Sequence record: OQ031492
Source of the DNA: Escherichia phage MRostami-2023b
Length of the DNA stretch: 64,000 nt
Reading direction: 5' to 3' (one strand)
Shown: piece after piece, positions 2,338-64,000 of the stretch
Numbering within the stretch: position 1 is the stretch's first letter
How the letters are laid out: every line of letters starts with the position of its first letter
Notes under the pieces: model-generated
The model's input: only the letters and a program-made list of their open reading frames with translations
Told to the model about the DNA's origin: nothing
Databases searched by the model: none
Made by a program: the position numbers and the translations under genes

Positions 2338-2339
2338 AA

Positions 2340-2969: not shown

Positions 2970-2978
2970 GGAGTTTAA

Positions 2979-4040: not shown

Positions 4041-4586
4041 ATGATATTTACAAACTTTAAAAAATATATTCCTGAAGACCCTGAACTAAAAGAATTGGTA
4101 GAAGCAGAGAACATTCTTTTTCTTCGTTGCGATCAAGGTTACGATTGGTATGATTTACGTAGCACAGAATTCAATAACGATAAAATGAAAGTCGTTTTTG
4201 ATGATCAAAATCGTATTGTGTTTTGGAATACTGATCCTACACTACTTTGCCCTGAAGATCTTTCTATAGCACAAGTAGACTTTAATATAGATACTTTTGA
4301 GGATATTAGGAACAAGGTTCTGGATTTAGAAACCTTAACTCTTAAGGATAAAGAGTATTCCCGTGAAGAGTTGATGACACAAGCTAGTGCAAAAATTCGC
4401 TCTTTACAAGAAACAGCGGTAGCACTTATAACACCTTTACAGTATGCTAAAGATTTAGAAATGGCTACTGAAGACGAATTAGCTTATCTTAAAAATCTTC
4501 AAGTTTATGTAGTTAAACTAAATCGTGTTCCGCTTCAAAAAGACTATCCTTACGCTATAGATTGGCCTACATTACCGACAGAATAA
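4041..4586 (+). CDS. Tail fibre assembly chaperone-like protein
   Basis: 181 aa immediately downstream of fibre gene (stop/start abutting); size and position typical. Confidence 0.4.
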   Translation: MIFTNFKKYIPEDPELKELVEAENILFLRCDQGYDWYDLRSTEFNNDKMKVVFDDQNRIVFWNTDPTLLCPEDLSIAQVDFNIDTFEDIRNKVLDLETLTLKDKEYSREELMTQASAKIRSLQETAVALITPLQYAKDLEMATEDELAYLKNLQVYVVKLNRVPLQKDYPYAIDWPTLPTE

Positions 4587-4595
4587 GGGATCACT

Positions 4596-4931
4596 ATGGA
4601 ATTTCAAGAAGCATGGGGACTTGCAAAGGATGCAATAATCCCTTTAATCGGAGTCATCTGGTTCTTTTTCAAACAAAAAATGGATAAATTCGGCTCTGAT
4701 CTTGAGGAAATGGAGGAGAAAAGTCGAGAGCTAGAGAAGAAGTTGGTCTTTGTTGAATCAACTTATGCAACTAAAGCCGAACTTACCCAGATGCTAAATC
4801 AAATTAACTCTACATTAATGGCAAATAATAACACCCTTGAGCAAAAAATTGAAAAGATTATGGACCTCAAGAATGCGACTATCCAAATGATGCTAGATGA
4901 CATAGTTAAACGTACACAGAATAAGGGGTAA
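4596..4931 (+). CDS. Hypothetical protein with N-terminal TM segment and coiled coil
   Basis: 111 aa ORF, hydrophobic N-terminus. Confidence 0.4.
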   Translation: MEFQEAWGLAKDAIIPLIGVIWFFFKQKMDKFGSDLEEMEEKSRELEKKLVFVESTYATKAELTQMLNQINSTLMANNNTLEQKIEKIMDLKNATIQMMLDDIVKRTQNKG

Positions 4932-4934
4932 TTA

Positions 4935-7900
4935 ATGGCAACATTCCCAACATATCCAGCAACGTCTCTCGAACAGGGCGTAGACCTGGTTATTTTCTCA
5001 TCTAACCAACTCCATGATGTTATTAATGGAAGTGCTACAGAGAGTATTGAAACAGAATCAGGGTTGATACCAACCCTGAGAAAAGCCCTTGTTGACAACT
5101 TTTTCTTTAAAAGCCCATTGGATTGGGCGCAAGGCACAAACGAAACAGTTTTTAACCAACTTCGTTATTTCCAGAATGGAGTATTGAGCGGTTATTACTA
5201 TGCCCCTAACGCTACATTGGTTAACCCAATCCCTATGCAAGGGACTCCAGTAGGAGATAACAACTGGGTATTGTGGGGACTGAAGACAGAACAATTGGCA
5301 ACAGAAGTCACCCCTTGGGTATATTCTGGTGCAACTGGTTATGAAACAGTAATTAGTCCTCCTTACATCTTTGATAGTGCTATTGTTACGATCAATGGTG
5401 TTATTCAGGTTCTGGGGGAAGCTTTCCGTATAGAAGATAGTAAGATCATCTTATCTGAACCTTTGGGACACGATCCTGCAACAGGACTGCCAAACAAACT
5501 TTTTGCTTATATTGGCAAAATCGTAGCTTCAGCAGATACAGATCCTAATCTAGAGAACCGTCTTGTTAGTTTAGAAACAAAAACGGAAGAACTAACAGAA
5601 AGCATGGATAAAGTCCCTCTGCAAACTATTGCTCGTAAGTATGGTTTGTTAGATGATGAGGTGGCTTACGCAACAGCAGGTCAATCGTTAACAGGGATTA
5701 AAGCTCTGTATGATCCGGTAGCACAGTCTTCCTACACATTACCTCCTAACATCACAGGAACTTTAACATCCTTATCTGTTTCTGGAGTAATGACTTATTC
5801 TGGAGGATCTGTAGACCTTTCTGCACTGGCTGTTGAGCGTGGACAGTTTGTTCATTTGCCTACAAGCTTTGGTAATAACGTAACTCTGACAGCTAAAAAT
5901 CAGACGATTGGACGTGGTGCTGGTCGTTATCGTTGGGCTGGAAGTTTACCAAAAAGTATTTTGGCCTCTGATACATTGGAGACAAGCGGAGGATTAGGTC
6001 CAAATGCATGGGTTCTGACTAATACAGAAGGACTGTTAACTCCTCGTGGTGGAACATACAACGATCTATTCGATGTTGTCTACTTGTCAGAATTTGCTAA
6101 CAATACAACTACCTATACCACACCAGAAGCAGCTTTCCAGGCGGCACTGTTAGCAGCAAAAGCTTCGAAAAGCAAGATTCTCGATGCTTACGGTTGCGAC
6201 ATGACTTTCACGACAAGCTCTTTTGATATTCAAGATATCACTTTGCGTGGTGGTGTGTTCCGTGGTCAACGCGACTATCGTGTGCAGAATGCTACAGTAG
6301 AAGGCACAACTTTCCGTAACTCTCGTGTTATGTATTGGGGTGGTGCTGTGCGCATGTTCGATTGTTTGTGGGACGGTGCTCCTCGCGCAGGTCAAGTTGG
6401 TAGCTTGGTATTCCAAGGCAACCCAATATCAGGTACTTTTGAAATTGATAATTGTACTTTTAAAAACGGGTTATATGGCATTCTTCAACAAGGAACAGGG
6501 GAACCAGTAACACGCGGTGTCTTCCGTAACCTTACCTTCATGGACATGCAAGGTGATGCAATAGAACTGAACGTCATCAATAAACATTATGACGATGGTT
6601 GTGTGATTGAGAATATTTACCTGTCTAATATCGATGGGACTAACGCTCCTATTCCTCTGTCCAACTGGGGTATCGGTATCGGTGTAGCTGGTAAAGGACC
6701 ATATGGTTACGGAATCCCTGATGATCAATATTGTAAGAACATTACAATTCGTAACGTTTTTGCAAAACGTTGTCGTCAGATTGTCCACGTAGAAGTTGGT
6801 CGTAATATCTCTATCGAAAACATTCATGGCGATCCAGATCAAACCGTATCTGTTGGGACAGGTTTGGCAACTGGCGCAGTTGTAATGTATGGAAGTAAAG
6901 ACTTTACGATTGATGGTGTTTATGGAGAGCCTAAAACAGACGGTAGCACACTTGCAAGTAATATCCGTATGATTTACTTGGAGTGGGGAACTAACGCAGT
7001 TCTGGATGAAGAGGGTAATCCGGTAGTTCCGGCACAGGGCAGACCTTCAAACCCATGCTTTAACTATTCTGTTCGTAACATTCACACCAAAACTGGGCGT
7101 GTTTTTGCGGGAGTTTCCGCTGGGCCAGGTTATGAAAACAGAGTTAGCTTTGAAAATATTCGTTGCGCTGCCTTGCAGTTGTTCGGTATAGCTTCTTGGC
7201 TTTCAATGTCTAACATCACCTGTAATATCTTCGATTGTGTTGGTCAACCTGAATCTGGTCCAGGGACATTTTATGATGGATTCTTCCGTAGAGAAAAATC
7301 TGTTCTTGAAATGGTTAACGTAAACTGTTACCCAGATGGCAAGACGATGGTTACTGGTCGTCCACAGTGGAGCCGTTGCCGTTACTCGGATATTCATCGT
7401 GTCAACTGTAATGTTGAAGCTAATATGTATACCAATATCGCAGGTGGTATTGGAGCTATTGTAGGGACAACGGGCAAAGTTTATTACTTAGAGCCTAATC
7501 CTAGTCGAAACATTGATGGAATGCATTTCCCAACAGGGAAAGAGTTTGACAAAGGGGATATGATAGTCAAGGCGGATAATACGTTCTTCCTTGTAACAAC
7601 AAGTGGGGCATATATTCCAGATATCCCAGCTTTCGGTATTCGAGCTACACAGGCAGGAGATACCTTCCTGACACAGAACTTGACTCCTAACGGGACAGCA
7701 ACAAATGCTTCTTGGTTGTATCATTACCCTCTGTCAGCAGGGACACGTATCCGTATTCCTGGCGCTGGTGTAGGTGGAGCAGATTTGGACACAGTTATTA
7801 CTCGTGCACCTTATCAAGATAATGATACGTGGACTAACCCAGTTAAAATAGACATTGCAGATCCAATTGTAACGCCTACAAGTGCTGGAGTTAGAATTAA

Positions 7901-8050: not shown

Positions 8051-10075
8051 ATGAATTTAACAAGACCTAATAGTGCGATAGCCGATCTGGTAGAAGCTAC
8101 TTATCGAAAACGTCGCAGCTTTGAGGCAGGTTTTACATTACGTAATTCCCGTGAAGTTTTGCTGTTAGCAGCAGAAGGGAATTATTACCAATGGAAAGGA
8201 ACTTTTCCTAAAGTAGTTCCAGCAAACTCTACGCCAGCCACCACAGGTGGTATTTCTTCCCTTGCATGGCAAAATGTTGGGACCGCTGATGATATAGCAA
8301 TTATCAATGCCAAGTTTACGGCAATGCAGCAACAGATTGATGATCTGTCGGAAACAATACCTGAAGCTGGTAAATCGGCTTATCAGATCGCACTTGATAA
8401 TGGTTTTGTTGGAACAGAAGCACAATGGCTTGCTTCTTTGAAAGGGGATACTGGTGCTCAACTTAATATTAAAGGATCATTAGCAAACACTAGTGAACTA
8501 CCATCCACAGGTAACGTTGCAGGGGATGGTTATATCGTAGGTGATGTAATCTACGCTTGGGATGGTTCTGTTTGGAAACTTATTTCTTCTCTTGGGCCAG
8601 AAGGTAAATCAGCTTACGAGGTATGGTTGGCAGATGGTAATACAGGATCTGTTTATGATTTTCTTACCTCTATAAAAGGTGATAAAGGTGATGTTGGTCC
8701 TACAGGGCCACAGGGAGCACCTGGTGTTAACGCCAATGGTTTTGATTATCGTGGGGATTTGCCTTCTACAAGTAACTTACCACAACCAAACTCTGAAAAC
8801 GTAAGTCAAGCTTATTCTATCAATGGTAATCTTTATGTCTCTAATGGGACAGCTTGGGTCAACATGGGTAATATTGTTGGTCCTCAAGGTCCACAAGGTG
8901 AGGCAGGTAAAGACGGTCTTGATGGAACAGATGGAGATGAAGGGAAATCTGCATATCAAAGTTGGCTGGATGCTGGTAATGAAGGGACAGAAGTAGATTT
9001 TATTGCCTCACTTAAAGGTCCAAAAGGAGACAAAGGTGATCAAGGAGAGCGAGGTCCACAAGGTGAACTAGGTCCACAAGGACCAGTGGGTGCAACAGGA
9101 TCAGGCTTAGATATTATCGGGGTTCTGAACAGTGAAGCTGAACTTCCTCCTACCGGAGAAGTAGGTGATGCATATAAAATTAATAATGATTTATATGTTT
9201 GGGTTCAAGATGCTACGGAATGGATGAATGTTGGCAGTCTTGGAGGAACATCAATTACAGCTAAAGGTCATGTTCCGAACAGTGAAGCTCTCCCTGTTTA
9301 TAATAACTATGGCGATGCCTACTTAACTGAAGACACTAGTAATCTTTACATCTATACCTACGATCAAGACACCAATTCCGCATCTTTTGTTGACATGGGA
9401 AGTATTAAAGGCGACAAAGGTGAAAAAGGGGATAAAGGAGATAAGGGTGATCCTGGAACAAACGGAACCAACGGTACTGATGGGACCAACGGTAAGGACG
9501 GCGCACAGTGGTTTGTAGCAACAACTAATCCAGTTGCAGGAGACGGTGTTATCAATGATTACGCCTTCAATACTACCACTGGAGCAGTGTTTAAGAAAAC
9601 AGATTCTTCTACGTGGACGCTTATAGGCACTCTTCCTAGTATACCAGAAGCCCCTCAAGACGGCTTGACGTATGGTCGGTCTGATGGAAACTGGATCGAA
9701 ATATCAGGATCAGATCCTACGGAAGCTATAACACCAACTAGAGTTACAGCAGGTTTCATGGAACTTGAAACAACTACTGCCAACTCTGGAGCATCTTGGA
9801 CTCCTTCTGGAACTTCCAATATGTATGTTGTTACAGTGACTGATGCTCTGACAGTTGGAGCATGGCCTGGTGTCACTGGCTCTACTAAACCTAAAGCGTT
9901 TTCAGCAATGATTTATTTGATTCAAGATACAACGGGACACACGGTTACACTAGATGCGTCTTATGGAGCACTAAATGATACAGAAATAGCAACTACTGCT
10001 AACGCAGTAACAATTTTGCAATTAACGTATCCTGGTGTGGGTAATGTCGTGGACATGGTTGTTGTAACACGATAA
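8051..10075 (+). CDS. Tail fibre with collagen-like Gly-X-Y repeats
   Basis: 674 aa; several G-X-Y runs (GPQGPQGEAGKDGLDGTDGDEGK; GPKGDKGDQGERGPQGELGPQGPVG; KGDKGEKGDKGDKGDPGTNGTNGTDGTNGKDG). Confidence 0.6.
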   Translation: MNLTRPNSAIADLVEATYRKRRSFEAGFTLRNSREVLLLAAEGNYYQWKGTFPKVVPANSTPATTGGISSLAWQNVGTADDIAIINAKFTAMQQQIDDLSETIPEAGKSAYQIALDNGFVGTEAQWLASLKGDTGAQLNIKGSLANTSELPSTGNVAGDGYIVGDVIYAWDGSVWKLISSLGPEGKSAYEVWLADGNTGSVYDFLTSIKGDKGDVGPTGPQGAPGVNANGFDYRGDLPSTSNLPQPNSENVSQAYSINGNLYVSNGTAWVNMGNIVGPQGPQGEAGKDGLDGTDGDEGKSAYQSWLDAGNEGTEVDFIASLKGPKGDKGDQGERGPQGELGPQGPVGATGSGLDIIGVLNSEAELPPTGEVGDAYKINNDLYVWVQDATEWMNVGSLGGTSITAKGHVPNSEALPVYNNYGDAYLTEDTSNLYIYTYDQDTNSASFVDMGSIKGDKGEKGDKGDKGDPGTNGTNGTDGTNGKDGAQWFVATTNPVAGDGVINDYAFNTTTGAVFKKTDSSTWTLIGTLPSIPEAPQDGLTYGRSDGNWIEISGSDPTEAITPTRVTAGFMELETTTANSGASWTPSGTSNMYVVTVTDALTVGAWPGVTGSTKPKAFSAMIYLIQDTTGHTVTLDASYGALNDTEIATTANAVTILQLTYPGVGNVVDMVVVTR

Positions 10076-54085: not shown

Positions 54086-54614
54086 TGATTATGTATTCTT
54101 CTTTTCACATAAAGATGTTTTTAGTAATTGGTATATTGCACCCTTTACAGAAACCGAACCAGGTTACAATCAGACATTTAATTGTGTCGAACAATACATG
54201 ATGTGGCGTAAAGCTTTGCTTTTTAATGATCACAACACTGCACAGGCTATTCTGACTCATAGTTTGATACGGAAAGATGAGAAGATCCAAGCTTATTACA
54301 AACGTATGGGTAGGGCAGTGTCGGATTTTGATAACAATGTATGGGAAGAGAACCGTGAGCGTATTGTTATGCGAGGTTTATGCTTGAAATATGTACAGAA
54401 TCCAGATTTGTATGCAGACTTACACCTTTACCAATACAAAACGTTTGTTGAAGCAAGCCCCTACGATAAGGTTTACGGAATTGGAATGGGGATGTATGAA
54501 CCAGGGGTGCTAAACCCTGCCACCTGGAAAGGGCAGAATCTTTTAGGTAAATATCATAATAAACTGATCGAAATACTTTTCCCAGACAGAATACCGCAAA
54601 GACGATATTTGTGA
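54072..54614 (+). CDS. NADAR-domain protein (YbiA-like)
   Basis: FFFSHKDVFSNWY…EQYMMWRKALLF…DKVYGIGMG…GQNLLGKYHNKL matches NADAR/DUF1768 landmarks. Confidence 0.65.
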   Translation: MRITDDYVFFFSHKDVFSNWYIAPFTETEPGYNQTFNCVEQYMMWRKALLFNDHNTAQAILTHSLIRKDEKIQAYYKRMGRAVSDFDNNVWEENRERIVMRGLCLKYVQNPDLYADLHLYQYKTFVEASPYDKVYGIGMGMYEPGVLNPATWKGQNLLGKYHNKLIEILFPDRIPQRRYL

Positions 54615-54857
54615 TATTTTAACTTTTTTCATTTTTAGAACAAAGGTGTCACTTTGTAGCACAGAAATAAGGCTCCTACAGCACCGTAGAGAGCCTGTTA
54701 TTTTGTCCTATACAAACCCTTATCTTTTTCAGTTTGCATCACTAGGATTCGATCTAAGTGGGTTCCTGAAGGTCTACTAATAAGATTAAAGGTTATCTCA
54801 AATTCCCATTACCTATTATCTCAAAAATCCCTCAAATTATTTAAACTTTTTAAGAAT

Positions 54858-54895
54858 TTACAAAAGTGAAAGTTGAAAACCAAAATTTAAAGTTT
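54858..54895. repeat. A-rich direct repeat copy 1 in non-coding control region
   Basis: tacaaaagtgaaagttgaaaaccaaaatttaaagttta; near-copies at 54998-55035 and partial at 54937-54966. Confidence 0.5.
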
Positions 54896-54997
54896 AGGAA
54901 AATTATCTTAAAATGTTAGATACAAAACAAAACTCAAAAGTCAAGGAAAATTTTAAAAATTTTGCGCGCCCACAGTATTTAAAGTTTTTTTGCTTTT

Positions 54998-55035
54998 ACA
55001 AAAATGAAAGTACAAAAGCAAAATTTAAAGTTTAC
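54998..55035. repeat. A-rich direct repeat copy 2
   Basis: tacaaaaatgaaagtacaaaagcaaaatttaaagttta. Confidence 0.5.
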
Positions 55036-55039
55036 AAAA

Positions 55040-55175
55040 ATTTTTATGCAGGTGAGAATGAGAAGAGTTCTCATATGGAAATGCAAATGATAATGATTCG
55101 CATTTAAGTTTATAAATGAGATTGATTCTTATTTAATAAGGTAAATGATAACCATTCTCATTTAGAGAATGACGC
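55040..55175. promoter_or_regulatory. Cluster of palindromic operator-like sites
   Basis: gagaatgagaagagttctcat; aaatgc-aaatgataatgatt-cgcattt (Fur-box-like GATAATGAT core); cattctcatttagagaatg. Confidence 0.4.
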
Positions 55176-55420
55176 GCAGGGGCGGTGTTTGTCTCGCGCT
55201 CCCGTGTCCCCTCGCCATGTAATAAGAATAACAGATCCAGCCAGGAAAGCAAGCGATTATTTTATCTTTACATTTCTTTACAAATATATAGCGCCCAGCC
55301 TACCGGCGATCAACCTTCCAACCAGCGCCCTGGTATGTTAGCCCCGCCTTTACGCCGTGGGGTGGCGCTTCCTCTTCTGTATGTAAAACAGTATAAGCCC
55401 TATCCCTGGGCTTGTCAAGA

Positions 55421-55687
55421 TTATTTTTTGTTTTCTTGCCAGGTCAGGACACCTAGCCAAAAATGAATATCACCTTTTCCCCAATGTGGTATATTGCTTT
55501 CNNNNNNNNNACTGCAAGCCCATAGATAACCATTTGCGAACGTATCAAAATGATCTATATCCTCGACCTTATAATCTGATAGGTTGAGAACGGTTTCAAC
55601 CTTTAAGCCCGTTGCGCTTGCTACCTGGTGCACCGTGCCGCCTTGCCAGCCCAATGAGTGCATAAGGTGTAATGTAGTATTTGTCAT
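55421..55687 (-). CDS. Hypothetical protein divergent from the early-gene array (8 N inside)
   Basis: 88 aa ORF; possible TTGCTA-17-TATCAT promoter upstream. Confidence 0.3.
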   Translation of the reverse strand: MTNTTLHLMHSLGWQGGTVHQVASATGLKVETVLNLSDYKVEDIDHFDTFANGYLWACSXXXESNIPHWGKGDIHFWLGVLTWQENKK

Positions 55688-55796
55688 GGTATCGCCCTTT
55701 CTTTGATGTGCGCCCTGGTTGGCGCGGTAGAAAGATGATAGCCCTTTCTTTTATATATAGCAAGCAAAAAGAAAATAAAAAAGATTGAAAAAGTGA

Positions 55797-55854
55797 TTGA
55801 CGTTCGCCAGGTGGCGGCATAATATTTACCACGTAGGGCGGCAATGGTGCCGCT
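55797..55854 (+). promoter_or_regulatory. Sigma70-type promoter (TTGACG-17-TAATAT) plus conserved leader hairpin
   Basis: -10 followed by ttaccacGTAGGGCGGCAatggTGCCGC. Confidence 0.6.
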
Positions 55855-55874
55855 CATTATTTGGAGTTAAAATC

Positions 55875-56072
55875 ATGGCAACATTGCACATTGTGGCGAA
55901 AGCTGGACAAATAAACGTGGTAGTAAACGGTTTTACTGAGTTCAGTCATCCCCAGGATGATCATGAAACGGTTTTATCTTTCATTGATTCACTGTTAGAA
56001 ATGGGAGTAATTACAGAAGACCAGCACGCTACAAAATGCAAACGCGTTAATCAAATTGCAGGGATAGAATAA
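55875..56072 (+). CDS. Small early-type protein
   Basis: 65 aa from ATG after ggagtt RBS. Confidence 0.4.
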   Translation: MATLHIVAKAGQINVVVNGFTEFSHPQDDHETVLSFIDSLLEMGVITEDQHATKCKRVNQIAGIE

Positions 56073-56078
56073 AAAGTA

Positions 56079-56137
56079 TTGACAACAAACAACAACCTGA
56101 TAAGATGTATCACATAGGGCGGGAAGTGGTTTCCCGC
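56079..56137 (+). promoter_or_regulatory. Promoter (TTGACA-16-TAAGAT) plus leader hairpin
   Basis: gtatcacATAGGGCGGGAAgtggtTTCCCGC. Confidence 0.55.
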
Positions 56138-56162
56138 TCGTAACAGAAGAGAGATTATCATC

Positions 56163-56435
56163 ATGGCATCATATAGCGCAACAATGATCGTAGCTGGCAC
56201 CACTGGTAAACCTATGTGCGGTGGCGGATCTTTCGCAAATATCAACATTGACGGGCGTTTATCCCTGGACGCAGCGATCACCGTGGCGCGGGAAACATTT
56301 AAGAAAGAATGTAAATTCAATAAACAAGATTATCTCGGTTTTGCTATTGAAAAAACCGCGCGCTTTGTTGATTATAAAAGCCCGAAAATGGTTGACACTA
56401 CATTAAAAGCGCAAGATGTAGCGTTTTTGCTTTAA
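56163..56435 (+). CDS. Small early-type protein
   Basis: 90 aa, RBS agaagagag. Confidence 0.4.
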   Translation: MASYSATMIVAGTTGKPMCGGGSFANINIDGRLSLDAAITVARETFKKECKFNKQDYLGFAIEKTARFVDYKSPKMVDTTLKAQDVAFLL

Positions 56436-56438
56436 GGC

Positions 56439-56494
56439 TTGACATTAACGACTAATTTGTTAATATGTTACATAAAGCGGGAATAGTTCCCGCT
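56439..56494 (+). promoter_or_regulatory. Promoter (TTGACA-16-TAATAT) plus leader hairpin
   Basis: AGCGGGAAtagTTCCCGCT after -10. Confidence 0.55.
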
Positions 56495-56511
56495 ATTTGT
56501 AAGGTGGTAGA

Positions 56512-56769
56512 ATGTTTTACATCAAATTAAAAGGTCACGTGATCGCGTTCAAAGATAACGCTTTTTACAGATTAGCAAAATATGCGTTAATACATCCCCA
56601 CTATGTTTATATAAGGGGGCGTGATGAAATAAATATCTTTGATCAAACAACATGCGAGAACATCGAGATCCGCAAGGTTGGCGTACGTGATTATCGTACA
56701 TCTTTCTACCCTTGCAAGGATTCAGCAAGTCTTTTCAAAGTATGCCAATTGTTGAAAAAAGGTGGTTAA
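56512..56769 (+). CDS. Small early-type protein
   Basis: 85 aa, RBS aaggtgg. Confidence 0.4.
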   Translation: MFYIKLKGHVIAFKDNAFYRLAKYALIHPHYVYIRGRDEINIFDQTTCENIEIRKVGVRDYRTSFYPCKDSASLFKVCQLLKKGG

Positions 56770-56770
56770 T

Positions 56771-57328
56771 ATGGGCCGCGAATATGTGATCCAGTCTTGG
56801 GTAAAACATGAAGCAGATGATCCGCGCATCATTCCCGATCATCTTATCGATGAATCCACGGGATATAGCGGTGAGCAAATAGGTAACAGATTAGCACGTA
56901 GTAACGGCAACGTAAAAGCACGTTATGTGCGCCCTGGCTGGCTGGCAAATGGTAACGCTGATTTATCCAGTGCGGAAGATGCGAGCGACGGCGCGAAAGA
57001 TAATCCTTTGTACAAAGTTGATCCGGCTTTTCGTGTCCTGGATGAATACCCCAGCAAGATAGCGGCGCTCGATCAGGCCCTGGAAAGTAAGCGCATCACC
57101 TGGACCGCTTACAACATGGCAAAAAACGTACTTGATGGTAAATTGATTCAAGCTGAAAGAAAATTAGCCAAAATTGCAGCTATAGCCCAGGAGGAAGACG
57201 AGGAGACAACGGAAGAGGAAGAGTACGAAGAGATCCCGCCGTTGTTGTGTGTTGATGCTTTTCCTGATTATCAGCCGACAGAGGAAGAAAAAAGGATCGC
57301 ACTAGAAAACTTTGAAAATAGTCTTTGA
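56771..57328 (+). CDS. Acidic hypothetical protein
   Basis: 185 aa from MGREYVIQ; Glu-rich C-terminal tract. Confidence 0.4.
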   Translation: MGREYVIQSWVKHEADDPRIIPDHLIDESTGYSGEQIGNRLARSNGNVKARYVRPGWLANGNADLSSAEDASDGAKDNPLYKVDPAFRVLDEYPSKIAALDQALESKRITWTAYNMAKNVLDGKLIQAERKLAKIAAIAQEEDEETTEEEEYEEIPPLLCVDAFPDYQPTEEEKRIALENFENSL

Positions 57329-57382
57329 CATATCGCCGCCACTGGCATAATATTTACCACGTAGGGCGGCAATGGTGCCGCT
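57325..57382 (+). promoter_or_regulatory. Promoter (TTGACA-17-TAATAT) plus leader hairpin
   Basis: Near-identical to 55797-55854 element. Confidence 0.55.
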
Positions 57383-57410
57383 CATAGTAAAATTATGCAA
57401 GAGGTTTGCA

Positions 57411-57506
57411 ATGATTAATAAAGAAAATAGCTTGACGGTTGGAACGATTAACGCTATCATTTTCGCCGTTCCATTTTGGGTTGTAGTAGCGGCTATTATT
57501 TTCTAA
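57411..57506 (+). CDS. Tiny hydrophobic peptide (31 aa)
   Basis: MINKENSLTVGTINAIIFAVPFWVVVAAIIF; own promoter-hairpin. Confidence 0.3.
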   Translation: MINKENSLTVGTINAIIFAVPFWVVVAAIIF

Positions 57507-57515
57507 AAAATATTC

Positions 57516-57576
57516 TTGACAACGTTTTTTAATCTGATAAGATGTATCACATAGGGCGGCGGAATACTTCCCCGCC
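57516..57576 (+). promoter_or_regulatory. Promoter (TTGACA-16-TAAGAT) plus leader hairpin
   Basis: gtatcacATAGGGCGGCGGAAtacTTCCCCGCC. Confidence 0.55.
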
Positions 57577-57597
57577 AAAACAAAAAAGGGTAACACA

Positions 57598-57960
57598 ATG
57601 AGCAAGCAAATCAGTACTATCATGTTTAATCTGGTATCTTTCCGCGATGATATGAAAAATTTACCACGTGAAACGGTTGATATTCATGTTTCAGCTTATC
57701 GCGCCCTTATTGACATGTTACCGCTAAAACGTGATCAACATGCCGCTAATATGATGCTTAATGCTATGCTTAAAAAGATGATTCAAACTGATCTCACCCT
57801 GGCATATGAGTATCAAGGGCGCTTATATGCAACTTACAACAAAACGGTACCTGGTTTGGGAAGTACCGAAGAGTTGCACGGCTTAAACCTGGATCAAAAC
57901 ACTTGGGATAGTATGCGCCGCGTTATGGTATGGGCCGAAAGCGGTAAAATTTACGAATAA
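57598..57960 (+). CDS. Small early-type protein
   Basis: 120 aa. Confidence 0.4.
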   Translation: MSKQISTIMFNLVSFRDDMKNLPRETVDIHVSAYRALIDMLPLKRDQHAANMMLNAMLKKMIQTDLTLAYEYQGRLYATYNKTVPGLGSTEELHGLNLDQNTWDSMRRVMVWAESGKIYE

Positions 57961-57966
57961 AAACGG

Positions 57967-58023
57967 TTGACACTGTTTAAACTTCTGGTATAGTTTATCA
58001 CGTAGGGCGGCAATGGTGCCGCC
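57967..58023 (+). promoter_or_regulatory. Promoter (TTGACA-16-TATAGT) plus leader hairpin
   Basis: ttatcacGTAGGGCGGCAatggTGCCGCC. Confidence 0.55.
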
Positions 58024-58043
58024 AACAATAAAAGGTTAACACC

Positions 58044-58409
58044 ATGGCTATTAATATCAATGTTTCCGCTTATGCTACCCTGGCTAACACGGCTAAAATC
58101 GAATTATCCAGCATTGAGGCGGTGCATATTAGCGCCCGTCGCTGGTTTCAAAAGTCTTATGGTAATACTTATTTCTCTTTGATGGTTGACGTTGAGATCG
58201 GCGGTAAATTGATCGAAGTGGTTAACGTTCCGTTTCAATATGGCTATGGTGATCATTTTGATACCGTCGCCCTGGAAGAATTTAGCAAGGTTATCAACCT
58301 TGAGGGCAAGGAATTTTCACGCGGCGCGTATCTTTCCCGTTTTTGCCGTGACAATGGGATCACTGTATACAGTCATGCAAGCGATGTTAAACGTAAAAAA
58401 GATCTATAA
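58044..58409 (+). CDS. Small early-type protein
   Basis: 121 aa. Confidence 0.4.
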   Translation: MAININVSAYATLANTAKIELSSIEAVHISARRWFQKSYGNTYFSLMVDVEIGGKLIEVVNVPFQYGYGDHFDTVALEEFSKVINLEGKEFSRGAYLSRFCRDNGITVYSHASDVKRKKDL

Positions 58410-58415
58410 AAAGCA

Positions 58416-58475
58416 TTGACAGCACGAATAAAAAGCGTAAAATGTTTTATATCGAGAGCGGGAACACTTCCCGCC
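58416..58475 (+). promoter_or_regulatory. Promoter (TTGACA-16-TAAAAT) plus leader hairpin
   Basis: GCGGGAAcacTTCCCGC after -10. Confidence 0.5.
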
Positions 58476-58498
58476 TCACTGAAAAAGAGAGAAAAATC

Positions 58499-58738
58499 AT
58501 GGCTAAATCTAAAATGTACAACGGTCACAAAAACAAAACTCATTGGAATGTAAGCCTTTGGATTAATAACGATGAATCGTTATACCGGTTGGCCCAAGAT
58601 TTTATTAACGCTAATGCTAATCGTAATGATGCGGCGCGGGATATGATGCTTTTTCTGGAACAAACTGGACAAGATAAAACGCCAGACGGTTTCAAATATA
58701 GCACTACTGCGATCCGTGCCGCGATGGTTGGAATGTAA
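58499..58738 (+). CDS. Small early-type protein
   Basis: 79 aa from MAKSKMY. Confidence 0.4.
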   Translation: MAKSKMYNGHKNKTHWNVSLWINNDESLYRLAQDFINANANRNDAARDMMLFLEQTGQDKTPDGFKYSTTAIRAAMVGM

Positions 58739-58746
58739 TAAAAACA

Positions 58747-58805
58747 GTTGACAACGTTTAAAATTAGTGTAAGATGTATCACATAGGGCGGGAAGTGGTT
58801 TCCCG
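58747..58805 (+). promoter_or_regulatory. Promoter (TTGACA-16-TAAGAT) plus leader hairpin
   Basis: Near-identical to 56079-56137 element. Confidence 0.55.
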
Positions 58806-58828
58806 CCAAAACAGAGAGATTAAAGATT

Positions 58829-59056
58829 ATGGCTATCAATATTGTTCGCGTATCCGGCACCGTTGGCACTTCACAGGTTATTGCAGTCGTCACNNNNNNN
58901 NNNNNNNNNNNNNNNNNNNNNNCCTTGAATAAGTGGGCTATTGCTAATTTTGGGGAATATGCAAGCGTCGAGTACATCGAATCCTACCAGGTGCCAACCA
59001 TCAGCCTAACCGATCTCAACGTTGATCGCCTGTTATGCCTGGATGAATTAATCTGA
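58829..59056 (+). CDS. Small early-type protein (39 N inside)
   Basis: 75 codons incl. masked part. Confidence 0.3.
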   Translation: MAINIVRVSGTVGTSQVIAVVXXXXXXXXXXXLNKWAIANFGEYASVEYIESYQVPTISLTDLNVDRLLCLDELI

Positions 59057-59065
59057 AAAAGATTG

Positions 59066-59122
59066 TTGACACGGGAAAGAAAAAGAGTAAACTATATTAC
59101 GTAGGGCGGCAATGGTGCCGCT
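59066..59122 (+). promoter_or_regulatory. Promoter (TTGACA-16-TAAACT) plus leader hairpin
   Basis: atattacGTAGGGCGGCAatggTGCCGC. Confidence 0.5.
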
Positions 59123-59143
59123 CACAACAGAAGAGAGATTATC

Positions 59144-59339
59144 ATGNNNNNNNNNNNNNNNNNNNNNNNNNNNNNNNNNNNNNNNNNNNNNNNNNNNNNN
59201 NNNNNNNNNNNNNNNNNNNNNNNNNNNNNNNNNNNNNNNNNNNNNNNNNNNNNNNNNNNNNNNNNNNNNNNNNNNNNNNNNNNNNNNNNNNNNNNNNNNN
59301 NNNNNNNNNNNNNNNNNNNNNNNNNTTATAAAATAAAGC
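59144..59339 (+). CDS. Small ORF, start only; remainder masked
   Basis: ATG after agaagagagattatc RBS; 179 N follow. Confidence 0.2.
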
Positions 59340-59401
59340 TTGACAATAATTTGTTATCTAGTAAAGTGTACGACATAGGGCGGGGCAATAAGGCAACGCC
59401 C
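59340..59401 (+). promoter_or_regulatory. Promoter (TTGACA-16-TAAAGT) plus leader hairpin variant
   Basis: gtacgacATAGGGCGGGG…CGCCC. Confidence 0.45.
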
Positions 59402-59419
59402 ACTAATGAGGGTAAAATC

Positions 59420-59524
59420 ATGTTAGAGAAAATTTTCACGGTTGCAGTGGTTGGCCTGGCGTTATCGGTTGGAGTGGTTGCAACTATGGCTAACATGATC
59501 CTATCTTCCCACGGTATCGGCTAA
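59420..59524 (+). CDS. Tiny hydrophobic peptide (34 aa)
   Basis: MLEKIFTVAVVGLALSVGVVATMANMILSSHGIG. Confidence 0.3.
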   Translation: MLEKIFTVAVVGLALSVGVVATMANMILSSHGIG

Positions 59525-59534
59525 GGTGAAACAA

Positions 59535-59750
59535 ATGATCACGAATAAGACAGGTAAAACGGAATTTTTACGCGGCTTGCAAGTTGGTAAACCTGAGATC
59601 TGGCATTGTACTAAATCCGCACACAATGAAATGAAAGACTTTACCGCTAGTTTACAACGTGTTAAAATATCTATTACGCAGAAAAAAGCCTTGATAGTTG
59701 CAGAAAACGAGATCCCGCAAACCATTATTATTGTCGAGCGTACAGCATGA
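59535..59750 (+). CDS. Small early-type protein
   Basis: Start at ATG after aaggtg. Confidence 0.35.
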   Translation: MITNKTGKTEFLRGLQVGKPEIWHCTKSAHNEMKDFTASLQRVKISITQKKALIVAENEIPQTIIIVERTA

Positions 59751-60133
59751 AAACAGAAATCATTAACGAAATCATCAACGGCTATAAAGAAGCCTTTATT
59801 TTTGCTGAATCAGCAAGGGATCATGAAGGTAATTTTATTGATAACTTAGACGATTATGATTTTTCTCCTAGCGCGGACAAACGGATCGCCCAGGATGTAA
59901 CAGCCTTTATTAATGCTAATCTTGCCGCTATCTCTGAGGCAATGAGCGACGGCGCAACAGCCAACCAGATCGGCAATGATTTACATTTTACCCGTAACGG
60001 TCACGGCGTAGGCTTTTGGGATCGCCTTGAAATCTACACCACTAACACGGCGAACCGCCTAACCAATGCAGCTAAGTTTATGCCGAACGTGTCGGCTTAC
60101 ATTGGTGAAGATAATTTGATTTATATTGAATAA
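59747..60133 (+). CDS. Small early-type protein
   Basis: 128 aa, ATGA overlap. Confidence 0.4.
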   Translation: MKTEIINEIINGYKEAFIFAESARDHEGNFIDNLDDYDFSPSADKRIAQDVTAFINANLAAISEAMSDGATANQIGNDLHFTRNGHGVGFWDRLEIYTTNTANRLTNAAKFMPNVSAYIGEDNLIYIE

Positions 60134-60139
60134 AAAGTA

Positions 60140-60252
60140 TTGACACAGATCGCCAGTGTGATAATATTTACCACGTAGGGCGGCAATGGTGCCGCTGACA
60201 CAGATCGCCAGTGTGCTTATATTTAATGCGTAGGGCGGCAATGGTGCCGCCG
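60140..60252 (+). repeat. Tandem duplication of promoter plus leader hairpin unit (two ~56-bp copies)
   Basis: ttgacacagatcgccagtgtg…gtagggcggcaatggtgccgc followed by ctgacacagatcgccagtgtg…gtagggcggcaatggtgccgcc. Confidence 0.6.
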
Positions 60253-60269
60253 ATAATGAGGAAAGTAAA

Positions 60270-60569
60270 ATGGAAACTATCGCTATTGTTACCGTAGAAA
60301 AACTGGTTGTTGGTGATGTATTCGCGTTAATGGTGCCTAACAGCAGCAAGCTGGGCGCTTATGAAGTAATGGATCATAAAAATGAATCATTTGGCGACGG
60401 TTGCACAATGGCGGTAAAATCTTTAAAGGATGGAATCATCCGCCAGGCTAACTGGCACAAAGGGAATCAAGTCGGATTAATATCAGCTAATTTCTTGCCA
60501 GAAGAGCAAACGTTAGACCAACTATCAGGCGGTAAGACGTTAGCCGAACTACTGGAAACAGCGATCTAA
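60270..60569 (+). CDS. Small early-type protein
   Basis: 99 aa. Confidence 0.4.
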   Translation: METIAIVTVEKLVVGDVFALMVPNSSKLGAYEVMDHKNESFGDGCTMAVKSLKDGIIRQANWHKGNQVGLISANFLPEEQTLDQLSGGKTLAELLETAI

Positions 60570-60577
60570 TCAACAAA

Positions 60578-60593
60578 GGGGCGGCAACGCCCC
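60578..60593 (+). other. GNRA-loop hairpin in intergenic leader
   Basis: GGGGCG-gcaa-CGCCCC; no U-tract. Confidence 0.4.
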
Positions 60594-60613
60594 ACGTCAG
60601 AAAGGAAAAGATT

Positions 60614-60850
60614 ATGAGTATTGCAACAGTATTAAACGCCGTTAAAACCGCTGAATCATCCGGCTTACATGTTGAGCTTATAGATCAACCAGGTGGCGAT
60701 CTCCTTGTCCAGGTTTACCCGCCGAAAGTAGGGGATGATCATTATTGGTGCTATTCTGATACGTTCGAACAAGTAGACACGAAAGCGATCACGGCTTTTA
60801 TTTTAAAAGCTATTGAAGAAAATAACTTTCATTATAACATCAATCAATAA
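60614..60850 (+). CDS. Small early-type protein
   Basis: 78 aa. Confidence 0.4.
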   Translation: MSIATVLNAVKTAESSGLHVELIDQPGGDLLVQVYPPKVGDDHYWCYSDTFEQVDTKAITAFILKAIEENNFHYNINQ

Positions 60851-60859
60851 ACCATAAGC

Positions 60860-60875
60860 GGGGCGGTAACGCCCC
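60860..60875 (+). other. GNRA-loop hairpin in intergenic leader
   Basis: GGGGCG-gtaa-CGCCCC. Confidence 0.4.
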
Positions 60876-60905
60876 ATTAAACGCAATAGGAAGAGGCTAG
60901 AAAGC

Positions 60906-61190
60906 ATGAAAAAGATGATCGCAGTAGTTGCCCTGGTTGTTGGTATTAACGCGCCTGTACTGGCTAATGAGTTGCCAGAATCCATCACGTTAACCGATAT
61001 TAACGCAGTGAATCGGATCGGTGTTAATTATCGCCTATGCCTTGCCGCTAAAACTTTCCAGGACGGCACAACAGAGTACTACGGATTCGAGGGTATCCGC
61101 TGCGGTGAGCTTTCACGCGACCTTAAGGAAGATCCAGACCTTGAGGCCATACCGATGACCGTAAACGGTAAAGCCCACGTAAACCGCTAA
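60906..61190 (+). CDS. Small secreted protein with signal peptide
   Basis: MKKMIAVVALVVGINAPVLA…. Confidence 0.4.
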   Translation: MKKMIAVVALVVGINAPVLANELPESITLTDINAVNRIGVNYRLCLAAKTFQDGTTEYYGFEGIRCGELSRDLKEDPDLEAIPMTVNGKAHVNR

Positions 61191-61192
61191 CC

Positions 61193-61327
61193 ATGAGAAA
61201 GGTAATCATCACAATGGGGATCGTAGTAGCAACGCTGGCGCTTATCCCTTTCATGGTTGAACATGTGCTGATCAATGTTGTCCTGGTAGTCAGTGACCTA
61301 TTGGAAACGGTTGGCAACTGGTTTTAA
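61193..61327 (+). CDS. Small hydrophobic membrane peptide (not in ORF table)
   Basis: 44 aa MRKVIITMGIVVATLALIPFMVEHVLINVV…. Confidence 0.3.
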   Translation: MRKVIITMGIVVATLALIPFMVEHVLINVVLVVSDLLETVGNWF

Positions 61328-61335
61328 GATAATAA

Positions 61336-61362
61336 ATAGGGCTTGCAATAGTCCTATTTTTT
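61336..61362 (+). terminator. Rho-independent terminator
   Basis: atagggc…gtcctat stem followed by tttttt. Confidence 0.5.
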
Positions 61363-61501
61363 GTTATACTTATTGAACGGGCGGCACCTGGGAGCAGGGG
61401 AAGATAATCACCAGAAGACCCCGCTATATATTGATAACTAACGCCTATCAAACAACAAAACATCAAAGGAACAAACTATCAAATCTTTACAATTCTACCT
61501 A

Positions 61502-61551
61502 TTGACACCGGATCACGCTTACATTATTATTTATCACGTAGGGCGAGAATG
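61502..61551 (+). promoter_or_regulatory. Promoter (TTGACA-17-TATTAT) plus start of leader, truncated by N run
   Basis: ttatcacGTAGGGCGAG then masked. Confidence 0.45.
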
Positions 61552-61825
61552 NNNNNNNNNNNNNNNNNNNNNNNNNNNNNNNNNNNNNNNNNNNNNNNNN
61601 NNNNNNNNNNNNNNNNNNNNNNNNNNNNNNNNNNNNNNNNNNNNNNNNNNNNNNNNNNNNNNNNNNNNNNNNNNNNNNNNNNNNNNNNNNNNNNNNNNNN
61701 NNNNNNNNNNNNNNNNNNNNNNNNNNNNNNNNNNNNNNNNNNNNNNNNNNNNNNNNNNNNNNNNNNNNNNNNNNNNNNNNNNNNNNNNNNNNNNNNNNNN
61801 NNNNNNNNNNNNNNNNNNNNNNNNN
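61552..61825. other. Masked sequence (274 N) bounded by near-identical promoter-leader copies
   Basis: Both flanks read attattatttatcacgtagggcgag. Confidence 0.8.
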
Positions 61826-61874
61826 TCATGTTAAATTATTATTTATCACGTAGGGCGAGCAATACAGCAAGCCC
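61826..61874 (+). promoter_or_regulatory. Second copy of -10 plus leader element (-35 masked)
   Basis: tattat-ttatcac-gtagggcgagcaatacagcaagccc. Confidence 0.4.
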
Positions 61875-61891
61875 ACAAAGAGGAAAAGAAG

Positions 61892-62260
61892 ATGAGCAAA
61901 TCAGCAATTAAAGCAGTTGAAAAAGCGCAAGAAGTGATCGCAACGTCCACCACTGGCGCAAAGGTTAATCTCGTTGGTTATCTGACAGATGAAACTATCC
62001 GTAAAAATTGGCGTAATGCTGATTTACTGGCTTGCTTATTGATTAATAGTGTCGCTAATGCTTTCCAGTGTGAAACAGCCGAGAGCCTGGAGGAAAACTT
62101 GTTTGATAATATGGATCAAGCCATTGAAACCTATATACAATCAAACCTGGATAGCTGGAACAGTAAAACATGGCCCGACAATTTACGCGATACAACTGAT
62201 CAACTGATCCGCCTTGCTGTGATGGTTGAACGCGATAACGTTTACAACAGCACAAAGTAA
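61892..62260 (+). CDS. Small early-type protein
   Basis: 122 aa. Confidence 0.4.
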   Translation: MSKSAIKAVEKAQEVIATSTTGAKVNLVGYLTDETIRKNWRNADLLACLLINSVANAFQCETAESLEENLFDNMDQAIETYIQSNLDSWNSKTWPDNLRDTTDQLIRLAVMVERDNVYNSTK

Positions 62261-62269
62261 GATTATACA

Positions 62270-62290
62270 AGGGCGCACCAAGCGCCCTTT
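62270..62290 (+). terminator. Hairpin terminator (weak U-tract), same stem as 62828-62861
   Basis: agggcgc-accaa-gcgccct. Confidence 0.4.
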
Positions 62291-62325
62291 AACGTAAAGA
62301 AATGTAAATAATGCGCTATCCCCTA

Positions 62326-62354
62326 TTGACAGGGGATCGGCGTTATATTATATT
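62326..62354 (+). promoter_or_regulatory. Sigma70-type promoter (TTGACA-17-TATATT) with -35 embedded in palindrome
   Basis: atcccctaTTGACAggggat inverted repeat around -35. Confidence 0.45.
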
Positions 62355-62399
62355 TAACTCACTGGCAGCAAACAACGAAACGAAACAAAGGACAATACC

Positions 62400-62819
62400 A
62401 TGAACATTAAATCAAATAATCCAGCTTACTCCTTCGATAACGCTTTTTGTCACGGTAGCGCCGCCAAAGGCTTCGAAATCGATGGTAAATTGGTTATCGT
62501 GAACGTTGACGGGGAAGAGGTTGCAGTATATCCGGTAAACGATGTTAAAAGCCGTTTACAATGCCGCATGGATGTTACCGCGTATCAGCTTGATCCGATC
62601 CGTGTAGTTGCCCTGGTCCTGGAAGAAGAGATCAAAGCAATGCATCATAGTAACAAGTTTATTGGTGACGCGCAGGACAATATGAAAGTATGCCGCAGTA
62701 AAGTTAATGAAGCCTTGAAAGAATGCGGTTTTAAGGATCTGATGATTAAACGTGATGAAAAATTCCGCTTTCGTAATGACCTGGCGAACCGGATCTACTC
62801 AATATATGAAGCGTTATAA
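62400..62819 (+). CDS. Small early-type protein
   Basis: 139 aa. Confidence 0.4.
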   Translation: MNIKSNNPAYSFDNAFCHGSAAKGFEIDGKLVIVNVDGEEVAVYPVNDVKSRLQCRMDVTAYQLDPIRVVALVLEEEIKAMHHSNKFIGDAQDNMKVCRSKVNEALKECGFKDLMIKRDEKFRFRNDLANRIYSIYEAL

Positions 62820-62827
62820 TTGACAAC

Positions 62828-62861
62828 AAAAAAAGGGGCGCACCAAGCGCCCTTTCTTTTT
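62828..62861 (+). terminator. Rho-independent terminator
   Basis: aaaggggcgc-accaa-gcgccctttcttttt. Confidence 0.75.
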
Positions 62862-62879
62862 GCCCGAATAATGTTGATA

Positions 62880-63440
62880 GCTTTCGCCTATGAAAAACCG
62901 ACACAGAACAAAACTGAATAGATCGCGGTATCGAGCTAATCAACCATTAAACGAATAACCATACCTCCCAGGGTAACAGGTTGTTAGAGAGCCATTTAGA
63001 GCGGTTAAAATCGATCAACAACCAACAACAAACCATCAAAAACACCCTTTTACCTCCTTTCTAGTGCAATGATAACCATTATCATCTATCCATGTTTATC
63101 TATGCAATATAAGTGCATAACTATAATGTTGATAATAGTTCGCAACAACTAACTAACCAACAACCTAAAACAATAAGCAAACTAATCATAATCAAAGGAA
63201 TAATAGCAAGATGATTGATAACGACAAACAATCAAACCATGATGAATACTAAGCAAGATAACGATAACACGACAAAACAACCAACTAACGAACAATAACA
63301 AACGAAACCATTAAAATAATAACTATTGCCATAATAGTGACTGAATGAAATCATTACAAAACGAATCATTCCCAGGATCATCATTAGCACGCTATGCCGG
63401 ACACATAGCGAGCTAATAATAAGCCAACTACACCCCAACA
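62880..63440. other. ORF-free A/C-skewed low-complexity tract
   Basis: Plus strand almost devoid of G runs; repeated aacaa/ccaacaa/ataacga units; no credible ORF. Confidence 0.5.
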
Positions 63441-64000
63441 ATCATAACCATCGGTGACGGTTATTTCTTGTTATTGCGTAGCTTGCAATAATTGCAAGCG
63501 TAATTACGCTTACACTTATTGCGCTGGCTTATTATTAGCATTATATGTAATTACCAAGATCATAACATTAGCGCAATAACAATAATCATTGTGATAATTA
63601 CATAAGGAAATAATTAGCATGGCAATAATTATGGGGGCAATGGGAGGATGATTATCATCATTCCGATACATTGCACACTATGCACATAATAGAATAAAAG
63701 TCAATAATTTTGGGGGCGAAATGTTACCGCCACAGGCGGGAATGTTGAGCATCTTCTCTTAAACGTAAATAAAATCAGAAAATTCTTGATTTATTCTAGT
63801 TTTTATGTTAATAAACGTTTAAATAATAATCATTCTCATATAAATAATAGTCTGCTTGTCATGAGTGGGATTAGTTGACAGTGTTCCGTCATATGATGAA
63901 GTTGCCAAACCATTGATAAATAAGTGTTTGTGTGATTTATAATCAAGTGGCCCACCTTGTCGCTATGTTGGCATGAGCCTTGCATAAGTCATTGAATACG

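Follow-up and report, generated by a model that had tools for sequence, protein, structure and literature searches.

A tandem promoter-hairpin unit in the early region of a phAPEC8-like coliphage: a probable product of cassette duplication and exchange

Introduction

The promoter-early stem-loops (PeSLs) of the T4-like phages RB49/phi1, T4/PST and KVP40/nt-1 are strong sigma70 promoters combined with a stem-loop and repeated between ORFans in hyperplastic regions (Arbiol et al. 2010, PMC2839356; Comeau et al. 2014, PMC4122927). Where one phage has an ORFan with a PeSL on either side, its sibling has a single chimeric PeSL in the corresponding place; a back-to-back pair of PeSLs with nothing between them is not described in the portions of the two papers that were searched (PMC2839356, PMC4122927). 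In the literature on rV5/phAPEC8-group phages we found neither a description of such cassettes nor transcriptome data.

Tandem promoters are exemplified by rrn P1-P2. A hairpin that leaves about 0-4 unpaired nucleotides at the 5' end of a transcript blocks 5'-end-dependent decay by RNase E/RppH, and the ompA 5' UTR hairpin, studied by Emory, Bouvet and Belasco in 1992, is reportedly a 5'-terminal stem-loop mRNA stabiliser of this sort. Here we analyzed 64,000 nucleotides of Escherichia phage MRostami-2023b (record OQ031492; this whole stretch is referred to as the window), a phAPEC8-like coliphage (Phapecoctavirus, Stephanstirmvirinae) in which two copies of a promoter-hairpin unit stand back to back.

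Results and Discussion

The tandem and its transcription unit

Two head-to-tail 55-nt copies, at 60141-60195 and 60196-60250, were detected by repeat search with 50 of 55 positions identical (91%), and TRF reports the same tandem with a period of 55, 2.0 copies and a score of 185. A first-pass annotation of this DNA had described two consecutive copies of ~56 bp; the consecutive copies are recovered by both searches, and the period is corrected to 55. Its further claims, that spacer and hairpin are common to both copies and that the second has CTGACA (60195-200) in place of TTGACA, are borne out by direct reading. The copies share a 20-nt run, TGACACAGATCGCCAGTGTG, and a 22-nt run, CGTAGGGCGGCAATGGTGCCGC, as well as a 16-nt spacer, CAGATCGCCAGTGTG(A/C), between the -35 box and a TGn-extended -10 box; 7 nt past each -10 begins GTAGGGCGGCAATGGTGCCGC, which folds into a 7-bp hairpin. 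At the joint the hairpin end is followed immediately by TGACA, with microhomology of at most 1 nt, and the second -35 is CTGACA, its first base being supplied by the final C of hairpin 1 where the first -35 has a T. The repeat search of the window also returned a third copy, at 67% identity, at 59067. The features of the locus are as follows.

59747-60133: gene of 128 aa, upstream of the tandem
60112..60139, plus strand: AT-rich, UP-element-like stretch upstream of the first -35 (direct reading)
60131-60133, plus strand: stop codon TAA of the upstream gene, inside the AT-rich stretch
60140..60167, plus strand: unit 1 promoter (consensus scan 10/12 with TGn); -35 TTGACA at 60140-45, 16-nt spacer, TG at 60159-60, -10 TAATAT at 60162-67
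60175..60196, plus strand: predicted +1 at G60175 and hairpin 1 (fold -12.5 kcal/mol); GGCGGCA at 60179-85, loop ATGG, TGCCGCT at 60190-96, 7 bp including one G.U
60172-60201, plus strand: covariance-model match to hairpin 1, 43.2 bits
60195..60222, plus strand: unit 2 promoter, its -35 overlapping the 3' arm of hairpin 1; -35 CTGACA at 60195-200, 16-nt spacer, TG at 60214-15, -10 TTATAT at 60217-22 (alternative -10 TATATT at 60218-23)
60230..60251, plus strand: predicted +1 at G60230 and hairpin 2 (fold -14.2 kcal/mol); GGCGGCA at 60234-40, loop ATGG, TGCCGCC at 60245-51, 7 bp
60227-60256, plus strand: covariance-model match to hairpin 2, 46 bits
60258..60569, plus strand: Shine-Dalgarno GAGG (60258-61) and 99-aa ORFan (60270-60569), first of a four-gene unit
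60578-93 and 60860-75, plus strand: promoter-less intercistronic hairpins GGGGCGGCAACGCCCC and GGGGCGGTAACGCCCC
60614-60850, 60906-61190 and 61193-61327, plus strand: downstream ORFs of the transcription unit (ORF list)
61334-61359, plus strand: terminator-like hairpin with a T-run

The genes adjoining the tandem are of unknown function by comparison with PHROG and Pfam; the 99-aa ORFan belongs to PHROG 22684, a function-unknown family, and had no Pfam match. The hairpins at 60578-60593 and 60860-60875 (GGGGCG-GCAA/GTAA-CGCCCC) stand between small genes without a T-run, and may be RNA-stability or processing elements akin to the unit hairpins. A coding explanation of the repeat was rejected, as 55 nt is not a multiple of 3 and the minus-strand ORF at 60059-60349 would be frame-shifted between alleles; that ORF moreover runs antisense to conserved genes.

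The tandem of the promoter-hairpin unit is confirmed as real. Short repeats with hairpins are error-prone in assembly, Ns fall exactly at the joint in vB_EcoM_01, marking a site that is hard to assemble, and WPEC6 is suspiciously scrambled at such hairpins; it is nevertheless very improbable that the second copy is an artefact missing from the actual phage DNA, since the identical joint is present in the independently assembled ESCO5 (record version 3) and the copies differ at five sites, which no simple mis-count of repeats would produce. The k-mers of the joint and of the chimeric second copy described below, missing from the other alleles, would moreover point to an origin in real reads: because the joint k-mers are absent from single-unit and ORF-containing alleles, a graph chimera of such alleles could hardly have yielded them.

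Promoter-hairpin units of the early region

Many such cassettes populate the hyperplastic early region to which the tandem unit belongs, a context that the first-pass annotation had overlooked and by which the tandem is explained. At least 12 near-consensus sigma70-type promoters lie on the plus strand of the 55.8-60.3 kb early region, and in all 12 units a sequence like R-TAGGGCGG starts exactly 7 nt after the -10 and opens a 6-10 bp hairpin. Judged by sequence, these promoters comprise TTGACA (or a 5/6 match), a spacer of 16-17 nt, TAnnnT and often TGn. The 21-nt core GTAGGGCGGCAATGGTGCCGC occurs exactly six times in the window (55833, 57361, 58002, 59101, 60175 and 60230), always on the plus strand, against an expectation of 0 from 100 shuffles. 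Besides the two units of the tandem, the region holds the following.

55797..59401, plus strand: ten further promoter + 5' hairpin units, with promoter starts at 55797, 56079, 56439, 57325, 57516, 57967, 58416, 58748, 59066 and 59340

The same architecture recurs across the early regions of phAPEC8, tuntematon, ECML-183-2, KKP 3954 and phiWec179. Six genomes together provide 52 distinct leaders with at least 12 different stem sequences, and every one of the 52 keeps the 7-nt distance from -10 to R, leaves 0-5 unpaired 5' nucleotides before the hairpin and folds into a hairpin of 6-10 bp (-9 to -17 kcal/mol); when the predicted +1 is set at the conserved R, 28 of 29 distinct leaders have 0-4 unpaired 5' nucleotides. 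A covariance model seeded with seven real type-A sequences and searched against the loci of the window and its relatives gave 79 matches, on the plus strand only, which in the 64-kb window are confined to 55.8-61.9 kb. Rfam 15 contains no covariance model matching window positions 54500-63500 at E-values up to 1. RNAalifold applied to a MAFFT alignment of 29 leaders returned 0 pairs, the 3' arms being mis-registered where stem and loop lengths vary, and an Infernal-guided alignment was used in its place.

Under the model-guided alignment 96% of stem cells are paired. One stem position alternates between C-G and G-C in 14 of 40 distinct sequences and a second takes the form G.U, G-C or A-U; none of 500 shuffles attained the observed pairing or covariation score, the covariation consisting of one clearly compensatory position in an alignment that is itself fitted to the structure. 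For 21 of 29 distinct leaders, folding is better on the sense strand than on the antisense strand (p = 0.04). Sequence variation is very slight in the outer stem GGCGG/CCGCC and in the R-TAGGG prefix, so that recognition of the sequence by a protein is as compatible with these data as a purely structural role.

Downstream of these units, a consensus promoter at 61502 precedes GTAGGGCGAGAATG, in which the conserved prefix lacks a hairpin and runs directly into an ATG. The gene after this promoter (61502-61551) is masked by Ns (61552-61825), and a unit-like hairpin match lies at 61847-61878.

Comparison with PeSLs and with the phAPEC8 annotation

The units resemble PeSLs in having a sigma70-type promoter and a GC-rich stem-loop, in their intergenic position among ORFans with cassette-bounded indels, in their dense repetition within a hyperplastic region, in the chimeric single cassette found in a sibling, and in the use of cassette identity as the recombination substrate. 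They have no sequence in common with PeSLs and belong to another lineage, Stephanstirmvirinae/Vequintavirinae (rV5/phAPEC8-like, the window itself being Phapecoctavirus) rather than T4-like phages. The PeSL stem-loop is mostly placed between or over the -35/-10 boxes or upstream of them, whereas here it is fixed just after the predicted +1, and so would be transcribed as a 5' leader; five of six type-A stems here also lack the U-tract. The units are filed here as elements that appear to work like a PeSL, a new element of the PeSL kind outside the originally defined family.

At the orthologous site of the phAPEC8 record JX561091 two blocks, 3165-3201 and 3202-3221, are annotated under separate labels, "host dependent promoter (MEME)" and "promoter (PHIRE)". 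The latter is the hairpin core of the present unit, and the record misses the composite cassette, its structure and its role in indels; the database annotation is corrected in that the "PHIRE promoter" becomes the hairpin, predicted to be transcribed, of a composite cassette.

Alleles at the junction among related phages

About 60 GenBank phages match the locus at 93-99% identity, and in the replication genes the identity to phage tuntematon is 99.3%. At the junction of the 128-aa gene and the 99-aa gene the relatives present three alleles. State A, a single unit, is found in about 36 GenBank records, including phAPEC8, ABPW7 and tuntematon. State B is the tandem; of 73 matching GenBank records just two, ESCO5 and vB_EcoM_01, share its joint with the window, and in ESCO5 the two copies are identical (a perfect 55-nt duplication). 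State C, in about 21 records including DE16 and UP17, carries a 63-aa ORFan between unit 1 and a unit 2 whose -35 and spacer are unrelated to those of unit 1 and whose -10 segment is CTTATATTTAATGC. State A matches exactly the product to be expected from recombination between the identical hairpins of state C. One site thus displays a natural allele series of one unit, two units, and unit-ORF-unit.

Alignment of the copies and comparison with related genomes, two of the checks proposed by the first-pass annotation, locate five differences between copy 1 and copy 2 of the window (60161/60216 A>C, 60163/60218 A>T and 60171-73/60226-28 CCA>ATG). Four lie in copy 2 and belong to an existing -10 allele: the -10 segment at 60216-60229 is, base for base, the CTTATATTTAATGC of the DE16/UP17 downstream unit, and copy 2 is the -35 and spacer of unit 1 fused to the -10 segment of state-C unit 2. 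At the fifth, 60161, copy 1 carries the A of the ABPW7 variant. Because the differences match the DE16/UP17-type downstream segment, copy 2 reads as a recombinant patchwork, and the five differences are, by their sequence, imported alleles and not drift. The first-pass suggestion of a recent duplication or recombination between units is supported, and is sharpened by the precise one-module duplication joint, common with ESCO5; a reading of recent duplication followed by divergence fails at the five differing positions. The chimeric copy 2 was not found in other GenBank phages, among which no full-length match exceeds 94.6%.

The distribution of the tandem allele departs from core-genome relatedness: tuntematon, which matches the core best, has only one unit, and by their core genes the tandem-bearing phages are not one another's nearest relatives, a pattern to be expected of a mosaic region. 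Exact-pattern scans of IMG/VR and JGI metagenomes recovered neither the tandem joint nor the chimeric joint, and little weight is placed on these negatives, as only one contig in IMG/VR carries the unit 1 spacer and few the core. The 192-nt ORF of tuntematon and phiWec179 at window ~61330 was rejected as a copy of the DE16 ORFan at a second site, as BLASTP gave no alignment.

In vB_EcoM_01 (PP129558.1) the Ns, GGNNNNNNNGANACNGATCGCC, fall at ~640-655 of its locus, orthologous to window 60190-60205, and their pattern is partly as expected from a mixture of one-copy and two-copy molecules. The locus flags an error-prone assembly spot in phages of the rV5/phAPEC8 type.

Origin of the tandem

The overall explanation that we consider probable is that promoter + 5'-hairpin cassettes are shuffled by recombination and that the back-to-back pair arose by duplication and exchange. 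Dozens of cassettes with 20-35 nt of shared identity stand between the tiny early ORFans and would provide portable homology, and recombination between them would insert, delete and swap ORFan cassettes in a PeSL-like manner. In a first step exactly one module, from -35 to hairpin end, would have undergone an illegitimate duplication that used no more than 1 nt of microhomology; the sequence of the joint, common with ESCO5, most simply suggests one such event. In a second step, copy 2 would gain its -10 segment by exchange with an ORFan-containing (DE16/UP17-like) downstream unit. Alternatively, a U1-U1-ORF-U2 intermediate could have given rise to both tandem types through deletions at separate points, in the hairpin for the ESCO5 type or in CTwATATTTA for the window type; no such intermediate was observed among the relatives' alleles.

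Plain slippage, duplicating one unit that then drifted by point mutation with no other units involved, would account for the perfect 55-nt duplication in ESCO5 at the same joint, and the joint itself is simplest as a duplication. Random drift, however, would not recreate two existing alleles: four of the five differences, all in copy 2 and within 13 nt, reproduce the DE16/UP17 downstream -10 segment, CTTATATTTAATGC does occur at this locus in relatives, and the fifth reproduces the ABPW7 variant of copy 1. Slippage followed by drift is therefore judged improbable. About equally improbable is that the tandem represents the empty-site footprint of an excised ORF cassette, lost as a PeSL mini-circle or site-specifically at the hairpin base. 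Relatives do carry an ORFan between two units at the exact site, the joint coincides exactly with the hairpin's 3' base, and mini-circles are documented for the PeSLs of RB49 and phi1; but homologous excision would leave one chimeric unit of the phAPEC8 type and not two, in none of the relatives does a unit that carries the CAGATCGCCAGTGTG spacer stand on the downstream side of an ORF, and a precise deletion from hairpin end to next -35 would have proceeded without supporting homology.

Under duplication and exchange of cassettes, the tandem is a real but rare recombination by-product, ordinary in kind. It is likely to be near-neutral and unstable; its probable instability follows because recombination between its two hairpins would regenerate the exact ABPW7 single unit.

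Units as probable recombination points

Nine kb of the early region of the window correspond to 12-15 kb in relatives, split into 7-15 pieces. Homology breakpoints fall within 10 nt of a unit in 16 of 47 cases against 10.6% expected (binomial p = 1.6e-5; four relatives, leaving out breakpoints that adjoin masked Ns), a statistic that is indicative only, the comparisons being non-independent and BLAST segment ends favouring repeat edges. Stronger evidence for the units as recombination points comes from UPEC06 (Vequintavirinae), in which a homologue of the state-C ORFan, 76% identical, lies between two units (core GTAGGGCGGCAATAGTGCCGC) while its neighbour genes have no similarity to those of the window. 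The allele series indicates that in rV5/phAPEC8-like therapeutic coliphages the gain and loss of genes is driven by promoter/stem-loop cassettes, as it is by PeSLs in the T4-like phages, and large virulent phages in general may share the mechanism.

The early region of WPEC6 (PV763039.1) is scrambled into inverted blocks with respect to the window; examples from its locus are an inverted block at 2146-3254, a direct one at 3933-5656 and head-to-head units at 5632-5683. Unit hairpins coincide with several of the block ends (window 55830, 57382 and 60229), and the scrambling reflects either hairpin-mediated inversion or assembly chimeras at palindromes. WPEC genomes measure 155-161 kb, compared with ~150 kb for typical relatives. 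The window itself contains runs of N at 59147-59325 and ten other places, 2,701 N in total. The masking at 59147-59325 covers the ORF after unit 59066, at which tuntematon is longer by ~4.2 kb (~14 ORFans), and because of this masking the breakpoints of that indel are unreadable.

Predicted function of the units

Both copies of the tandem keep a -35, a 16-nt spacer, a TGn-extended -10 and the same +1 geometry. Host RNA polymerase would start at G60175 and G60230, with each transcript beginning 7 nt past the -10 at the R of R-TAGGGCGG, the start being placed by the fixed 7-nt distance together with the C|R dinucleotide. The -35-to-+20 spans of the two promoters abut (60140-60195 and 60195-60250), and the tandem would probably give gene 60270 and the three genes downstream (60270-61327) two adjacent starts, the longer transcript bearing two hairpins; the double promoter that the first-pass annotation had proposed for this gene is plausible from its sequence. 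Copy 2 has a -35 with a 5/6 match, and the AT-rich stretch found upstream of copy 1 (60112-60139) and of other units is absent from it, hairpin 1 standing in that place. Like rrn P1-P2, the locus presents two full -35/-10 sets on one strand that would feed one gene; unlike them, these are copies of one module, 55 bp apart, the second -35 overlapping the first hairpin, and they form a rare polymorphism and not a conserved design.

In each transcript a GC-rich hairpin would form immediately, 3-4 nt from the 5' end, and a short purine-rich leader with a Shine-Dalgarno sequence would come after it. The unit hairpin is most likely a 5'-terminal mRNA stabiliser, resembling that of the ompA 5' UTR in being stable and ~0-4 unpaired nucleotides from the predicted 5' end, and differing from ompA-type stabilisers in a strong conservation of outer-stem sequence that the mechanism does not need. 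In read-through transcripts, the unit hairpins and those at 60578/60860 could serve as 3' barriers or weak attenuators.

A role other than stabilisation, whether as terminator or attenuator, as operator or RNA site of an early shut-off regulator, or as a phage-specific promoter element, is rather unlikely. It would accommodate the sequence invariance of the R-TAGGGCGG prefix and outer stem across 47 distinct units, the annotation of the core as a promoter in phAPEC8, the similar promoter-less hairpins between downstream genes, and the reporter assays in which PeSL stem-loops cut read-through. Against termination, a T-rich tail follows only one of six type-A units, the other five leading into purine-rich leaders with a Shine-Dalgarno sequence, while terminator-like hairpins with T-runs are present at other sites of the region (61334 and 62833). 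The inner stem varies with pairing kept, its G.U pairs favouring RNA of the sense strand, and a near-consensus sigma70 promoter stands at a fixed distance upstream of every unit. This same upstream promoter led us to set aside an N4-like hairpin promoter for a phage RNA polymerase.

An altogether different proposal is that the invariant R-TAGGGCGG hairpin is the recognition site of a phage recombinase or nuclease, or of an RNA-binding regulator, such that the units would constitute an integron-like system of ORFan exchange in Stephanstirmvirinae and Vequintavirinae and the tandem an "empty cassette" junction cut and joined at the hairpin base; we hold this to be a speculative idea with little chance of being correct. 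The compact and portable promoter + 5'-hairpin module is a possible expression part.

Other repeats in the window

Just before the early region lies an AT-rich stretch of ~0.8 kb (54615-55420) without a convincing gene. It contains three ~29-nt repeats like AAATGATAATGATTCnCATTT at 55085-55169, which we presume to resemble Fur-box half-sites, and a ~45-nt direct repeat at 54857/54995, 138 nt apart. Tuntematon annotates a repeat_region at the site matching 54615-55420, and the rV5 paper mentions a "non-coding" box. Far from the early region, at 8675-9492, runs of 9-nt and 18-nt periodic repeats (e.g. AAGGTCCACAAGGAGAAC) suggest a collagen-like Gly-X-Y segment, probably in a tail-fibre-type gene.
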